From an uncultured Bacillota bacterium (GTDB lineage: Bacteria; Bacillota; DTU025; MWDF01): 64,000 nucleotides of DNA. Both the position numbers and the translations under genes were made by a program. The notes beneath the pieces were generated by a model, which searched no databases, had not been told where the DNA came from, and saw only the letters and a list, made by a program, of their open reading frames with translations. Where the stretch lies: NCBI GenBank assembly GCA_963823655.1, contig CAWGMK010000004.1, positions 32,001-96,000 of the forward strand. The letters run 5' to 3'. Below, in pieces: positions 10,096 to 62,186 of this stretch. Numbering within the stretch: the first letter of the stretch is position 1; the number at the start of each line of letters is the position of its first letter.

Positions 10096-11902
10096 TTAGA
10101 ACTTGATTGTGAAGTTGGCACCGAAGGTATCCCAGTACATATCACCAACGGTATTGAAGTACGGGCCCCAAGGCTTCTTGTACTCAGCATGGCTGGACGA
10201 TACGCTGGCGAGACCGCTGTTGCCCCAGTATACTGTCGCTTTGGCATTGTCGCTTACCTTTATGTCGCCCTCTAGCTTGGCGTATACGGCGTGTACCGGT
10301 GTCGTTGATGAAGGTATAAGGCCTGTAGCGCGATAGGTGACCGTACCTTTAACAGTGACCATGTCAGACGCCTTGTACGTTGCATAAACGCTGGCTATCG
10401 GCTCGAATGAGAGAGCGGGTGTCGTTGCTACGTTCTTGGTGATGAACAACAGACCGGCGCTCCAGAGTCCGTTGATGGTGGAGTCGAGCTTCAACATGCC
10501 GATGGCTTCCATCGTATGTATCGGAGCGAATTCCTTCCATGTATAGCCGAAACGGCCGGCGACGAGGGTCGTGAGGTCCACGACGTACGGAACTGTCGTG
10601 TATTTGTTCTCATACTTGGCATAGATGCCGGCTGTTGCGGTGTTGGTGCCCTTCTGCTCGTAGGAGCCATAGGCTTCTACGTGGAGCGGGAACACTGCGT
10701 CATAGTATACGCTGCCGTATACCTTGTCATAACCGGTTCCGAAACCGTATGTGGCTACGCCGTCCCAGTTGGAGTTATAGCCGAGCTTGCCGCCCAGTGT
10801 TCCAATAAGGCCGACATACTTTGCCCTGAGCTCAGCGATTTCGCCATGGGCGAAACCGGACTGCCAGTTGATCTTGGAGTCGAGGTTGAGTCCGAGCTCT
10901 ACGGGTCCGATTGTCGCCGATACGTCGAGGTTGGCGTTGTTGCCGCCAAGAGCGTTAAATGACTCGAACCATACGCCGTTCTTGAAGATTAACTTTACGG
11001 GGCCAAGAACTGCGGTGGCGTTGGTTGTTACTTCCTGGAGGTCCCTGGTGTAGAAGGAAGGGGTGTCCTCGTCGAGGAGCGCGTCGGCGACGCCGTCCAT
11101 GCTCATCTTATAGGATACTTCGTCGATCGTTAAGACGGTGCCAAGCTTGATTTCCTTGACGCCTGCATAGGCTGCGAACGCCCATACATCGTCAGCGGCC
11201 CAGAACTGCATGCTGGGGATGAGAGAGTTGTCAAGGTCGGCGAAGTTGCCTACTGCAACCTGGAACTTGCCGCCGATTACGGGGATGGCGCCGGTCAATG
11301 AGGTCGACAGGCCCATGAAATACTGCATCGCTCTCATACAGCCAACCGAAGTCGGAGGTGAGGGTGAGGCCGAGAGGCAGGGCGGCTACGAGCTGAGCGG
11401 AGATCTTATAGTCGTCTCCTTCAGGAGCTGCGCTGGGAACTGGAACGAGGCTGTCGGATGTGTCATCCATTACGACCTGCGCTGCATAGCTGAGGTTCGG
11501 GGTGATGTTGCCCCACACCTTGCTGTACCTGTTGCCTTCGTTGTCACATCATCATAATTGAAGGTGCTGTCCAGGTTGAGGCTGAATGTGCTCTCAAGGC
11601 CGGTCCAGTACACATCATCGTTGTTGTCGCTGATCTCGAAGTTCAAGGGCGCGGTTGCGAACTTTACCCACCAGCCATCGGTTACGGCCAAGCCGCCCGA
11701 AAGGGTGAGGGGTGCATAAGCGGTCATGATCCCGGCCTCGTCGAAGTTGAAATTCAGCGAGAGGCTAAGGGAGTCGGCTACCGGTCTCATTGGCGTACGA
11801 ATAGCCGCCAGAGAAGGTGCCGGAGAGCTTGTAGTTGGCTGCTGCTGCCGGTATGGCGAGCATCATAAGGGCCACTACTGCAAATGCGAATATCTTCTTC
11901 AT
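10096..11902 (-). CDS. Secreted, putative outer-membrane beta-barrel/porin-like protein (~600 aa), split by three frameshifts
   Basis: Signal peptide MKKIFAFAVVALMMLAIPAAAA from ATG 11902 joins ORFs 11470-11790, 11231-11518 and 10096-11337. Alternating amphipathic strands rich in G/Y/F/W. Ends ...FGANFTIKF. Confidence 0.65.
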
Positions 11903-57623: not shown

Positions 57624-58337
57624 ATGATGGATACGATACTATTCGACTTGGACGGCAGCTTGCTGCCCATGGATCAGGACGCCTTCGTCAAAGCATATTT
57701 CAAGCAGCTGGCATTGAAGCTCTCCCATTACGGCCACACTCCGGAGAAGCTGATAAAGGGCGTTTTATACGGTACGGATGCGATGTTGGCAAACGACGGC
57801 TCCATGACCAACGAGGCGAGGTTCTGGATTGCCTTTGAGCAGGTTATGGGAGATGGAATACGCTCGCAGGAGGGCCATTTCGAGGACTTCTACCGAAACG
57901 AGTTCAACGGTGTGAAGGAACACACCCAGCCTTCGCTGCTTGCCGACCTGATCATCAAGTCCGCAAAGCGGAAAGGCTACCAGCTGGTGCTTGCCACAAA
58001 CCCCATATTCCCCCAAGTGGGCACATACGCCCGCATGGGATGGGCGGGGCTTGACCCTTCGGATTTCTCGCTGGTTACGACTTATGAGGCATTTTGCAGC
58101 TGCAAGCCCAATCTCGCCTACTACCGCGAGGTGCTGGCCAAGATTGGCTCACAGGCTGCTAACTGCCTGATGATAGGCAATGACGTCAAGGAGGATATGT
58201 GCGCCGCCGAAATTGGCATGGACGTATTCCTGCTCACCGATTGCCTAATCAACAAGGAGGGCAAGGATACCTCAGCTTACAGGAGCGGAAGCATGGCGGA
58301 CCTGTTTGATTTCATCGAAGCGCTGCCTCAGCTTTAG
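57624..58337 (+). CDS. HAD-family hydrolase
   Basis: FDLDGSLL, LATNP, CKP, MIGND...D. Confidence 0.88.
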   Translation: MMDTILFDLDGSLLPMDQDAFVKAYFKQLALKLSHYGHTPEKLIKGVLYGTDAMLANDGSMTNEARFWIAFEQVMGDGIRSQEGHFEDFYRNEFNGVKEHTQPSLLADLIIKSAKRKGYQLVLATNPIFPQVGTYARMGWAGLDPSDFSLVTTYEAFCSCKPNLAYYREVLAKIGSQAANCLMIGNDVKEDMCAAEIGMDVFLLTDCLINKEGKDTSAYRSGSMADLFDFIEALPQL

Positions 58338-58342
58338 CCCTT

Positions 58343-59458
58343 CTAAAGCTTCACGCTGATCAGCTCGTCCGAATCCAGGACGAGGATTCCGCCCGGGACG
58401 CTGAATATGTCCACATTCCCGTTTGCCCCGGGTACGCTTATCTTCGCTTTTTCGGATAAGGTCATCCCCAAGAATGGATGATCCCATCCTCCACCGGCAC
58501 ATAGAACCCGCCCGGCGCCTTTATGGGCTTGCCTGTAGCCTTCTCGGACAAACGCCCGCTAAGCTTGACCTTGCCTGATTTTGCGTCTATAAGGCTAAGC
58601 CCGGTGCGATCCTCTTCTATTAGCAGCAAGGCCCCATCATTGCCCAAAACCAGGAATGACGGCAGCTTCGATTGCAATCTCCAGGCAACGTCGTTGGGCT
58701 TCTCTGTCGACCATGACAGAAGCCCTGCATTGGCGTCCGCTAGGACCACCTGATCGGGGCCAGTCACGACCGCAAATTCAATATTGATGTCCGGTATCGG
58801 GGGCTTTGGCATGACGTGGTTCAAGTAGCTTACGACTGAGCCATCTGCGAGGCTTACCAGGTTAATGAACTCGAAGCCGATTGTAACGTCTGTTTCGAAC
58901 ATCCTTATCATTTTGCCTATGGTTAGTACTTTGTCCTGATCCATGAATTCCAGGAACCGAACCGGCCCCGGCCTTACGGGAAATCAGGTAGAGCAGTCAT
59001 AGGATGGGGTTGTCTGATTCTCGGGGTAGTGCTCCCACAGAAGCTCCCCATCGCCGCTGAAGGCCTGCGTTCCGTATCCGGTGCCCATTATTATCGCCCC
59101 GTCCGGCGTTGGCATTATGGAATAAATCTGAGCGTTCGCCTCGAACGCACACTCCAGTCAGCCATCTACTCCCAGTTTCGTAAGTTGTGACCCGTATGCC
59201 GCGAATACCTCGCCTTTGGGGCCGAATGCCAAAAGCTCCACATCGGCCGGGGCCTCCCAGTACCACGACTCCTGCCCGTCCTTGCCGATTGCGATCACCT
59301 CGGCGTCTGTTCCCACTACGACGGAGCCGTCGCCAGAGACCGCAATGCAGTTGGCCTCGACCTTATATCTCCAGCTTATCGAGGCTGCTTCGGCGGCTGC
59401 AGTCAGCGCTTGCCGCGAATACAAGCAGCATAATCGCTGCAATCATAAGTCTTTTCAA
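58343..59458 (-). CDS. Secreted PQQ-like beta-propeller protein with two in-frame TGA codons (candidate selenoprotein) and three apparent single-base insertions
   Basis: GGAGGTGA SD, TTG start, signal peptide, repeats DGQESWYW / DG*LECAF / DGELLWEH. ORFs 59158-59442 and 58462-58944 are in one frame, interrupted only by TGA at 59160 and 58986. Confidence 0.6.
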
Positions 59459-59554
59459 AATGCGGCTCACCTCCGTTCCTACAACGATGCTTTTATACCG
59501 AGATATTACTTTATCGCTGACCCTTTCTCAACTATAGCCCATGCTTTACGGATA

Positions 59555-60838
59555 TCAGGACTTGGCGCCTTCTGCGTTGTTGATTTTCCTCGCGTTCTCC
59601 TCGATGTTCATGATCTGGGGAATCGACGCTACCAGCAGGCTTAGCAAAATGCATATGGCACCTGCCATCACATACCATATCCGGTTTCCGAACGCATCCG
59701 ATACCGGACCGGCGATCAAAAGGCTCAAAGGCATCATGGCAGCCGCCCCCGCGTTGATTATCGAGAAGACGCGCCCCTGCATGTCCTGATTCACAGTTGA
59801 TTGTATGATGGCGATAACCGGACCGTTGCAGAATACCTGCATGAAACCTGTAATGAAGCAGCCCGCCAGAAGCCCCATATACAATGACACCGGCGATAGC
59901 CCCATGAGCATGACGCCGACTCCCATGCCAAGCAAACCAAGCAATGTCGTCCTTATCCTCTTCTTGAAGCCGCCCCAGGCAGAAAGTATCGCACCTCCCA
60001 CAATTGCGCCGATTCCCATCGCAGTCTCCGTCCACGCAAGCTCGATTGCCCCCAGCCCGAAGTCCTTCGTAACCAGCAGCGGCATTAGCGAACCGACGGG
60101 GGCGAACAGGAAGTTCAACAGCATCGCGAACATGATGAGCCCAAGAAGACCCGACCAGCTGCGGATGTACTTCAGGCCTTCAAACAAGTCATGGAAGTAT
60201 GTCGTGCGCGCAACATCCCCGCGCATCTGCGCAACCTGGCGCGGAGGCGACGGTATCTGCACGACTAATAATGTGAGCACTGCGAAGAACGCGGTGCCGA
60301 GGTCTATGGCAAGGACTCCTTGCGTCGGCAGCACCATGATGAGAAGTGCGCCCAGCGGCGGGGCGATTATCGCCATGATCCCCTGCAGGGCCTGGTTGAG
60401 GCCCCCTACCCTGGTAAGATGCCTCTCGGGTACAAGAAGGCTCGTGGACGCTATCATCGCCGGCTGATGGAAAGCGCCTCCAAGAGAGCGGATCATGAGG
60501 ATGATGAACACATGCCATATCTGCACGGCATCGAGCATGAACAGGATCATGAGCACACCGGTGGCAACGGCCACGGACGTGTCGGCGACTATCATTATCA
60601 TGCGCCTGTTAAGCCTGTCTACAAGCGGGCCTATGAAGGGCGCAGCCACTATCTGGGGAAGCACCGCCATTATCGTTGCCGTCGCCAATACTGTCGCAGA
60701 GCCCGTCTTCTGGGTCAGCCACCACACCAGGGCGAACTGGACCAGGGATGAGCCCAAAAGCGAAAGCGCCTGGCCGATCCAAATGAGGAAAAACCTGCCC
60801 GCCCACCGTTCGTCCGGAATACCCTGCCCTATGCTCAT
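59555..60838 (-). CDS. MFS transporter, DHA3/Mef(A)-like
   Basis: IWIGQALSLLGS..VQFALVWWLT..TGSA, DRLNRR, QSTV..DMQGRVFS. Confidence 0.88.
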   Translation of the reverse strand: MSIGQGIPDERWAGRFFLIWIGQALSLLGSSLVQFALVWWLTQKTGSATVLATATIMAVLPQIVAAPFIGPLVDRLNRRMIMIVADTSVAVATGVLMILFMLDAVQIWHVFIILMIRSLGGAFHQPAMIASTSLLVPERHLTRVGGLNQALQGIMAIIAPPLGALLIMVLPTQGVLAIDLGTAFFAVLTLLVVQIPSPPRQVAQMRGDVARTTYFHDLFEGLKYIRSWSGLLGLIMFAMLLNFLFAPVGSLMPLLVTKDFGLGAIELAWTETAMGIGAIVGGAILSAWGGFKKRIRTTLLGLLGMGVGVMLMGLSPVSLYMGLLAGCFITGFMQVFCNGPVIAIIQSTVNQDMQGRVFSIINAGAAAMMPLSLLIAGPVSDAFGNRIWYVMAGAICILLSLLVASIPQIMNIEENARKINNAEGAKS

Positions 60839-60890
60839 CTGCGGCTCTCCTTTTCGATAAGGCATTCTTCTACAAAGCTTGCAGCCTGCC

Positions 60891-61274
60891 CTAGGAAATC
60901 CTGTCCGCTAACGCCTCTTTTAATTTCGGGTCGATATCCAGAATTCCTTTAACCCTTATGGATTCGATCACTTCCCTGGCAAGACCCGGCTCTATATCCC
61001 GGGCAAGGCGCAGCAGCCCGATAATAGTCAGCTTCAGGCGCTCGTTTCTCGCCTTGTAGCCTTCAAGCTCGGCTTTTGAGTACACAAGCACACCGACTAC
61101 AAATGATGAGCGGCGTATCGCCTGCTGCAGCTCCATGTCATGCCGTTCCAGCTGATTGCGTATCGCGGTCCTTATGAAGTCCGTGCGGTTGGAGTAAAGG
61201 GCCTCCTGGACAAGAAGGTCCACTTTGCCAAGGTCCACCGCCGACATATTGATAGTTACTTTCTCAGTATCCAT
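60891..61274 (-). CDS. CopG/RHH family transcriptional regulator
   Basis: TEKVTINM..VDLGKVDLLV...YSNRTDFIRTAIRNQL. Confidence 0.85.
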   Translation of the reverse strand: MDTEKVTINMSAVDLGKVDLLVQEALYSNRTDFIRTAIRNQLERHDMELQQAIRRSSFVVGVLVYSKAELEGYKARNERLKLTIIGLLRLARDIEPGLAREVIESIRVKGILDIDPKLKEALADRIS

Positions 61275-61326: not shown

Positions 61327-61535
61327 TGGCTGATATTCTCATGAATATCCCGTTATGTCAAGCGTCGCAAATGCAAGCCCAAGTGACGGCTTCAATACCA
61401 TAAAGGACCATTGCAAAGCCGCATAACCGGCAAAATGCCCTATCCTATGGATTTTCCTGCCATATTGCGTCCATTTTAGAGGAGTTCTTGTAAAACGTGT
61501 CCAATTGGTATTTAGTACAGGAAAGGAGCATATGC

Positions 61536-62186
61536 ATGAAGCTTACTCGTATAGCATTGGCAGCGCTGTTAGTACTGGTTGCGTTGTTATCTGCAGGCTG
61601 CATGAAGACATGGTCATTAGACTTCACCAATAATACGGGCGGTTGGAATTCCCTAATAGGTTGGGAAGACCCCGGAATCAACTCGTGCGGCGATTACGGC
61701 CTGCTCCTAAGCGGCGTAACCTTGATGGGAAACTACGGTTTCACAGGCAATGTCGAATACTCTGTGACTTTCGATCTTGATGTGGCGCCCGGCAACGAGT
61801 TGGAAAAGTTTGAGATCTACCTGGGAAACGGGACTGACCCCGCGGCGCAGTTTCTCAAGGTGAAATTCGAACAGGTGGGCAACAGCTCCAGCGAGTACTA
61901 TGCCATGTTCGACAACGGCACTAAGATCCACGATGCCATCTATATCCCGGGAACAGTCTATAGCGGAAGCAATACCGTCAAGATCGTGGTGGAGGAGGGC
62001 TTTGTGTCCTTCTACATGAACAACGCGGTGCTTTATGAGGACTACGCTATCGGCAATTACTCTGCCCCGTTCCTGGTTCCATACGTGTTCGTCCAGCAGG
62101 GCTCCCCTGAGGAAGATGAGGAGCTGCTGATGCTCAAGAGCCTGAAAGTGAAATATTCGGGAGATAAGCAGAGCATGTTCACCTAA
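61536..62186 (+). CDS. Acidic lipoprotein, predicted ConA-like beta-sandwich (paralog 3)
   Basis: Lipobox SAGC, KTWSLDF, FTGNVEYSVTFDLDV. GAAAGGAG SD. Confidence 0.7.
   Translation: MKLTRIALAALLVLVALLSAGCMKTWSLDFTNNTGGWNSLIGWEDPGINSCGDYGLLLSGVTLMGNYGFTGNVEYSVTFDLDVAPGNELEKFEIYLGNGTDPAAQFLKVKFEQVGNSSSEYYAMFDNGTKIHDAIYIPGTVYSGSNTVKIVVEEGFVSFYMNNAVLYEDYAIGNYSAPFLVPYVFVQQGSPEEDEELLMLKSLKVKYSGDKQSMFT

Follow-up and report, generated by a model that had tools for sequence, protein, structure and literature searches.

Why does a gene for a beta-propeller protein carry a TGA triplet in the middle of its reading frame? This question is raised by a minus-strand locus in a stretch of 64,000 nucleotides (nt) from an uncultured Bacillota bacterium (assembly GCA_963823655.1, contig CAWGMK010000004.1, positions 32,001 to 96,000), which we call the window. 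The source genome (G000; 2.3 Mb in 13 contigs) contains the window as C4:32001-96000. On the minus strand the gene reads WEHYPENQTTPSYD-C-S-T-[TGA 58986-58984]-FPVRPGPVRFLEF-M, and its frame continues stop-free into the open reading frame (ORF) 58462-58944. An earlier note, made from the letters of the window alone, took the TGA for the selenocysteine (Sec) codon of a CxxU motif in an exported propeller protein, followed by a hairpin at 58971-58950 whose loop starts 21 nt past the TGA. The TGA after Cys-Ser-Thr, the open frame and the hairpin can all be read directly in the sequence. From the comparison of homologs, we consider it very probable (roughly 0.88) that this TGA is the Sec codon of a lineage-restricted and apparently undescribed family of exported eight-bladed propellers of the BamB/PQQ-like type.

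A tblastn search with the read-through protein revealed six paralogs in the source genome, in all of which the aligned place, following a Cys, is occupied by TGA. In a six-frame search of 40 relatives, two to four copies were found in each of six other species of the genus and one in G007, a member of a second family of the same order; none were found in the other 33. In our collection the order makes up the whole class (21 genomes), and the family was present in eight of these (all seven of the genus, including the source genome, and G007) and in none of the remaining 13. Both the order and the phylum were searched with a profile of 19 members; among 401 sampled genomes of the phylum, nothing but G007 and those species of the genus that were in the sample matched at E <= 1e-25. 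The earlier note had suggested that homologs should align Cys or a conserved TGA. When the codon itself was checked, all 27 copies from eight genomes (seven in G000 and 20 in G001-G007) had TGA at the aligned site, as did all nine additional public contigs, some of which are probably from the same genomes. The 20 copies outside G000 are all open frames of 360-467 amino acids (aa) with exactly one TGA each.

In every copy the UGA adjoins an invariant Cys, either directly (C-U, spacing 0) or with two residues in between (C-x-x-U, spacing 2). The tree consists of five subfamilies and a distant G007 member. The motifs are ..EDC-U-FPT.. in subfamily A, ..EECDT-U.. in B, ..TGCDT-U-IPI.. in C, ..YDC[AS]T-U.. 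in D, to which the window copy belongs, and ..ECD[FY]-U-GL.. in E. The window copy clusters with G001:C36 and G003:C6 (support 95/98; 38-39% identity); its invariant Cys is the TGC at 58993-58995, and the TGA at 58984-58986 is, by comparison of homologs, the putative Sec codon of the family. Invariant columns of the alignment are structural Gly, Trp and Pro residues, the Cys, the Sec and a Gly-Pro-Val, of which the Cys and Sec, at spacing 0 or 2, are the only functional-looking ones. The relatives have record titles that read 'uncultured Clostridia bacterium' or 'Bacillota bacterium', with an isolate name in the latter that suggests a sludge digester, and one metagenome contig is titled 'activated sludge metagenome'. 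The window protein as a query found no relatives in the genome and metagenome contig collections; a protein and an alignment of subfamily A, used as queries, did retrieve relatives in the contig collections. A match to 'CU.....GPV' at 10133-10198 of the window (minus strand) was rejected as an off-frame artefact inside ORF 10096-11337.

The hairpin is also common to the aligned copies. In the window copy it consists of a stem CCGGGGCCG, a loop GTT and a stem CGGTTCCTGG (58971-58950); its core stem pairs 58969-58964 with 58958-58953, and the loop 58963-58959 (GGTTC) includes an invariant G and a conserved T. In alignment A1 (24 sequences anchored on the TGA, gap-free), standard pairing of columns 30-35 with 41-46 (six pairs) is seen in 97.9% of 144 cells. 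The corresponding value for shuffles was 92.9 +/- 1.1%, none of 500 reaching the observed value, and slid partners gave 23-74%. The stem is rich in G+C, and its start is fixed at 14 nt past the TGA across the family. SelB is known to contact a G-U in the loop of the Sec insertion sequence (SECIS); in A1, G37 of the loop is invariant and the following T38 is at least 90% conserved. Synonymous sites in the stem are restricted: the Gly codon is limited to GGG or GGA, with A only opposite U, the Arg or Trp codon always ends in GG, and the Ser, Phe or Leu codon always ends in C. The outer pair links the third base of the codon preceding Gly to the first base of the one that follows Ser; 12 sequences have GC here, four AU, three UA and two GU, and three are unpaired. 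Conservation of the hairpin in homologs, another check that the earlier note had suggested, was thus observed in the stem, the loop G-U and the synonymous sites. A search of Rfam over 58200-59600 at E <= 1 gave no match.

The earlier note had also proposed that selA, selB, selC and selD should lie elsewhere in the genome. All four were found on contig C6, where the tRNA-Sec (76 bits), selD, selA and selB are clustered at C6:98054-104116. The selD gene itself has one in-frame TGA (G-U-A-A-K). The selB gene is read in two frames, one A being apparently missing in an A-run near C6:102950 (L027:4300-6220, which is G000:C6:102200-104116). SelA was found in all seven carrier relatives. Outside the window, a gene at G000:C7:150430-151146 (minus strand), which we take to be peroxiredoxin-like (Prx-like) from its motif rather than from a hidden Markov model, reads ..DFTFV-U-ATE.., where the in-frame TGA occupies the catalytic position; its hairpin has 6 bp and the loop AGUU. 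The hairpins of selD (GGUCC/GGC/GGACC) and of this Prx-type gene (CUCGGC/AGUU/GCCGAG) are similar in size and distance to that of the propeller family. In-frame TGAs in guaA-like (G000:C10:507750) and dnaE-like (G000:C10:80034) frames are probably assembly lesions and not Sec sites. A codon-usage scan for further read-through TGAs, which was too strict to recover the propeller family, returned mostly assembly lesions.

The earlier description of the product as an exported propeller agrees with Pfam, a structural model and the sequence, all of which indicate a PQQ_2/BamB-like eight-bladed propeller with a signal peptide. The main propeller frame of the window copy (58465-59409, minus strand; 315 codons with two in-frame TGAs) matched PQQ_2 (PF13360) with 33.2 bits against a cut-off of 27.6, as did the ortholog L044, its nearest intact relative, with 32.8 bits; the intact paralog P0001 (25.9 bits) fell under the cut-off. 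The AlphaFold (AF2) model was made from L044 and not from the window copy, and had a pLDDT of 87, a pTM of 0.83 and 33 strands. With this model, the best solved matches in Foldseek were eight-bladed propellers: the designed Cake8/Tako8, BamB (TM 0.66-0.70) and Bacillus YxaL (about 0.6). The Cys-Sec loop is the least confident part of the model and runs into a long strand. In all 18 intact aligned members the N-terminus is basic and then hydrophobic. An Omp85/BamA homolog (137 bits) is encoded outside the window at G000:C10:441658-442536, in a genome with relatives filed under Clostridia/Bacillota; the cell envelope is probably diderm.

The family was distinguished from several known groups. 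BamB proper was rejected (TIGR03300, 16.1 bits against 285.2; NF008351, 12 against 423). NCBIfam has no family for the window read-through protein or P0001, and the only matches of P0002, to BamB and GcvT, were far under the cut-offs. A thioredoxin-fold CxxU/UxxC oxidoreductase was also rejected, as the model is an all-beta propeller and no thioredoxin-type Pfam match was obtained. Pfam searches of the window read-through protein, L044 and P0001 revealed no redox domain or cofactor motif, and a look-alike search of a protein atlas with the read-through protein gave no result.

Could the locus instead consist of two genes, the first encoding an N-terminal half-propeller and ending normally at the TGA, the second starting just downstream? 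Public gene calls do split the locus in two: the N-terminal fragments (149-151 aa) stop at the Cys motif, the C-terminal ones (177-210 aa) begin right after the TGA, and these half-gene entries are unnamed or 'hypothetical'. The window gene also has an ATG (58944) 13 codons past the TGA. However, this ATG lacks a strong Shine-Dalgarno (SD) sequence, as the earlier note had pointed out, there being no GGAGG-like site upstream, and in most subfamilies an ATG is lacking close to the junction. The upstream and downstream parts share one frame in every case, with no gap between them; the stop is TGA and never TAA or TAG in all 27 copies, which represent five subfamilies and the distant member; the hairpin lies at a fixed distance from the TGA; and both parts jointly form one closed eight-bladed propeller model. 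In seven of seven ortholog pairs, moreover, differences pile up at third codon positions on both sides of the TGA (for L029 and L030, 29/19/60 by codon position upstream and 30/20/104 downstream), which argues that both halves are translated in one frame. Two separate genes are therefore highly improbable. An error of sequencing or assembly at 58986-58984 can be set aside almost with certainty: errors do exist elsewhere in the assembly, but the same codon occurs in every paralog and ortholog. The earlier note had suggested a check of raw reads at this place; near-identical DNA from an independent metagenome (contig X1, with two other letters in 251 over 58919-59169) has no listed change at the TGA. 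The remaining explanation of this kind, that the TGA is read as Trp or Gly by a reassigned code, or by near-cognate read-through, and not by the Sec system, is very unlikely. In its favor, one database protein (P0011, from JGI; 342 aa), a full-length member of the family, has W at the Sec position. This protein is known from its protein sequence only, and the W is probably, and most simply, the result of a gene call under a TGA=Trp table. Against it, TGA is the stop of 646 of 1643 long frames (39%) in the source genome, and among its 54 tRNAs (ARAGORN) the tRNA-Sec is the sole one with the anticodon UCA, the tRNA-Trp having CCA. As TGA ends 39% of the long frames and the only UCA tRNA is the tRNA-Sec, the code is standard, and a reassigned code was ruled out. 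In a scan of 241 million metagenome records the search pattern permitted a Cys or a Trp codon at this position, and neither form was confirmed; five relatives were found, all with TGA.

The reading of the TGA as a Sec codon also has to be weighed against a number of contrary observations. Cys-containing homologs are the usual hallmark of selenoprotein families, and this alternative form, which had been expected in the earlier note, did not turn up. None was among the top 150 matches of a profile search of 1.84 billion representatives, where giant PQQ-repeat proteins matching the N-terminal half only crowded the results; word-indexed searches of 5.8 billion proteins returned only fragments and P0011; six-frame searches, including the 401 genomes of the phylum, gave TGA forms only; and the metagenome contig scan described above gave no Cys form. 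These searches were not exhaustive. The window hairpin, folded singly, reaches a free energy of -17.1 kcal/mol, which 31 of 200 shuffles match (z -0.94); since this is no better than chance, the case for the hairpin rests on comparison. In the comparison, the stem overlaps the conserved codons for Gly-Pro-Val-Arg/Trp-Ser, so that the protein may explain part of the conservation, and double changes are seen in just one of the six pairs. None of the public RNA sequencing runs matched the stretch, and a redox or soft-ligand role of the Cys-Sec pair is one that we infer from the sequence. The branch of the window copy is long (0.97, versus 0.14-0.28 for its two nearest relatives). As assembled, this copy cannot yield a full protein, having two frame breaks and a second TGA, and five of the seven copies in G000 are frame-broken versus none of the 20 in the relatives, which could mean real decay.

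The breaks in the window copy can be located as follows. An SD-like GGAGGTG at 59468-59474 (minus strand) was read 9 nt before a TTG start (59458-59456), from which the signal peptide (MKRLMIAAIMLLVFAAS...; 59405-59458) is encoded one base out of frame with the propeller. A single surplus letter somewhere near 59400-59420 separates the two frames; in the orthologs the signal peptide is continuous and of the same length as in the window copy. At the other end, the propeller frame terminates at a third TGA, 58464-58462. Relative to related metagenome contigs, the region 58458-58476 has one surplus letter each at 58476 and 58458, by which this TGA becomes an apparent stop. The last 41 codons of the propeller (...ISVPGANGNVDIFSVPGGILVLDSDELISVKL; 58343-58468) are found in the signal-peptide frame (codons 58468-58346, then TAG 58345-58343); they resemble the final propeller strands and, by eye, align to the C-termini of the orthologs. 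An intact reading of the window gene thus needs one letter taken out near 59400-59420 and two near 58458-58476.

Is the window copy, then, a dead pseudogene of a selenoprotein family, with the TGA as a relic? This would be compatible with the reading of the family as such. In addition to the frame breaks, the extra TGA, the long terminal branch and the excess of broken copies in G000, a nearly invariant Trp is replaced in the window copy, and rpoB, rpoC and polC are open in the same assembly, so that indels are not everywhere. On the other hand, genes that must work are also broken. The only groEL of the assembly (G000:C13:173440-175015) is split between different frames into four pieces, of which one contains an in-frame TGA, and this points to indel errors that occur in clusters; selB, as mentioned above, lacks one letter. 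With rpoB, rpoC and polC open, it appears that indel lesions cluster and that they also hit essential genes. Contigs of three metagenome runs (X1, X2 and X17) cover parts of 58300-59500; they are from related strains, 88-99% alike, with a low depth of about 2-14, and a further run, X3, contributed nothing to this stretch. X1 and X17 lack the letters 58476 and 58458, and X2 lacks 58476 and ends before 58458. Without both letters the propeller frame joins the tail frame directly, and the intervening length then equals that of the orthologs. The N-terminal break has no contig coverage. Within 58721-58846, the listed differences were at third codon positions in nine of ten cases in X17 and in four of four in X1 (counted manually); these 13 of 14 differences, downstream of both TGAs, suggest purifying selection and not decay. 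The second TGA, furthermore, is accompanied by a U-x-x-C and a rare perfect hairpin, as described below. A dead copy is therefore rather unlikely, if not negligibly so, and the three surplus letters are more likely to be assembly errors or strain-private lesions than ancestral features or the result of ancient decay. No public sequencing run contained more than 0.16 of the sampled words.

Of the five broken copies in G000, four are broken in the signal-peptide region. Those other than the window copy are at C12:61950-63100, C7:232448-233560, C10:181480-182650 and C6:299900-301024, three of them being broken in that region; one of the intact copies is at C10:287009-288082. Programmed frameshifting at the N-terminal breaks was considered and rejected, as the four copies have no shared slippery motif.

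The second in-frame TGA of the window copy (59158-59160, minus strand) is at a position where other members have K, R, E, T, A or S. Three residues past it, a Cys stands in place of the nearly invariant Trp, forming U-L-E-C. At 59132-59148, 9 nt past this TGA, is a perfect 7-bp hairpin (GCGTTCG / AGG / CGAACGC), a candidate for a second SECIS; it has a free energy of -13.8 kcal/mol (z -1.8), and nine of 200 shuffles fold equally well. In the source genome, the frequency of comparable hairpins is 0.63% after TGA triplets and 0.66% after sampled positions. The loop AGG lacks the G-U of the family, and the hairpin was absent from all 25 other members that could be placed, one more having no match to the anchor motif. 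In contig X17 no change is listed in 59106-59187, whereas 59188-59335 has 21; of the 23 differences of this contig two are missing from the list, so that the list alone does not prove 59158-59160 to be unchanged. The coverage of X1 at this place is too close to the contig end to count. A compensating local pair of indels was rejected as the source of the second TGA, since the frame as read keeps the spacing of the invariant Gly and the Cys at the Trp position, and the shifted frames, by eye, do not. The second TGA may possibly be a second Sec site, with somewhat less than an even chance; otherwise it is a nonsense lesion with two coincidences. Equally tentative is a broader view, in which the family is Sec-only, a Cys counterpart existing nowhere, and continues to gain Sec sites, the window copy having gained its second Sec from a Lys/Arg-type position together with the change of Trp to Cys and a private 7-bp SECIS. 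If true, a Sec site would here have arisen from no Cys ancestor and have been caught in a single lineage.

By analogy with the known bacterial mechanism, SelB with Sec-tRNA(Sec) would bind the hairpin and bring Sec to the UGA, and read-through would give a single protein of about 360 residues. The N-terminal signal peptide, as judged from its sequence, would carry the protein over the cytoplasmic membrane, and with an Omp85/BamA homolog in the genome its destination is probably the periplasm or the outer membrane. The Cys-Sec pair, in a flexible loop just ahead of a propeller strand, might act as a selenenylsulfide redox center or as a soft-metal or chalcogen ligand. The proposed recoding shares with bacterial Sec-UGA recoding by a SECIS inside the ORF (prototype, E. 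coli fdhF) an in-frame UGA, a hairpin directly downstream in the coding region with G-U in the apical loop, a loop about 21 nt past the UGA and a complete set of selA, selB, selC and selD in the genome. It differs in that the host protein is new, that Rfam has no matching model and that the core of the hairpin, just 6 bp long, falls on the codons of the conserved peptide Gly-Pro-Val-Arg/Trp-Ser.

Spacings of 0 and 2 between Cys and Sec are the geometry of known selenenylsulfide redox centers. Mammalian thioredoxin reductase has a vicinal Cys-Sec (G-C-U-G), and the C-x-x-U and U-x-x-C selenoproteins have thioredoxin-like folds. Subfamily A shares the spacing of 0 with the former, and subfamilies B-E share the spacing of 2 with the latter; in the present family, however, the dyad is in a propeller loop, whereas in the known systems it is at the N-terminus of a thioredoxin-fold helix or in a flexible C-terminal tail. 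The eight-bladed PQQ-like fold is shared with BamB (YfgL) and YxaL, as is export with a signal peptide. The sequence identity to the BamB and YxaL structures is only 14-17%, the family has two to seven paralogs per genome and, by eye, most of its members lack a lipobox. To our knowledge, neither BamB nor YxaL carries a Cys-Sec loop. Quinoproteins of the methanol dehydrogenase type, which have about 600 residues, carry a vicinal Cys-Cys disulfide beside PQQ. The combination of an eight-bladed PQQ-type propeller with an adjacent chalcogen pair is shared with them, a likeness that we regard as a lead only; the mature proteins of the present family have about 340 residues, and the Pfam PQQ enzyme repeat family gave no match at E <= 0.01.

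Nearly all selenoproteins of bacteria are redox enzymes with one of a few folds, and the programs now used to find them depend on Cys homologs. The earlier note knew of no PQQ-like propeller selenoprotein family, and none appeared in NCBIfam. A full-text search of the literature retrieved no paper on a propeller, PQQ or BamB-type selenoprotein. The words 'propeller', 'PQQ' and 'WD40' do not occur in the main texts of a 2026 review in AEM (PMC13188914), of BSepDB (PMC13326102; 111 families) and of deep-Sep (PMC12013277), papers that give their lists of known families in supplements; Table 3 of the last of these has nine new families and no propeller. In the Discussion of the deep-Sep paper, all known selenoproteins are described as now seeming to have Cys homologs, and its filter may drop those without them (PMC12013277).

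The present family differs from usual selenoproteins in being an exported, non-enzymatic-looking propeller with one to seven divergent paralogs per genome, of which only the Sec form was seen in the collections searched. These features would explain its annotation as half-genes. If the Sec reading is correct, the family would provide a new structural setting for the Cys-Sec dyad and would indicate that filters based on homology to Cys forms can miss entire families. The compact SECIS, with a stem that coincides with a conserved peptide, would be useful for studying how RNA and protein jointly constrain codons. For annotation, the halves on either side of the TGA should be joined in the 20 intact genes of seven species genomes and in the G000 copies.

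The window encodes an MFS transporter of 436 aa and a 127-aa RHH_8 regulator at 59555-61274 (minus strand), immediately upstream of the propeller gene and in its orientation, and genes for a HAD hydrolase and a nitroreductase converge on the propeller gene from the other side. The neighborhood is not conserved across the subfamilies, and none of these window neighbors (MFS, HAD, nitroreductase and RHH_8) is beside the relatives. Farther away, at 61497-62186 on the plus strand, is an ORF of 229 aa that is lipoprotein-like, with a Cys at the cleavage site, and belongs to no Pfam family. Weak homologs of this ORF (22-24% identity) are directly upstream of subfamily-C propeller genes (L042, L045, L046 and L047), and it is the only window neighbor with homologs, though weak ones, beside propeller relatives.

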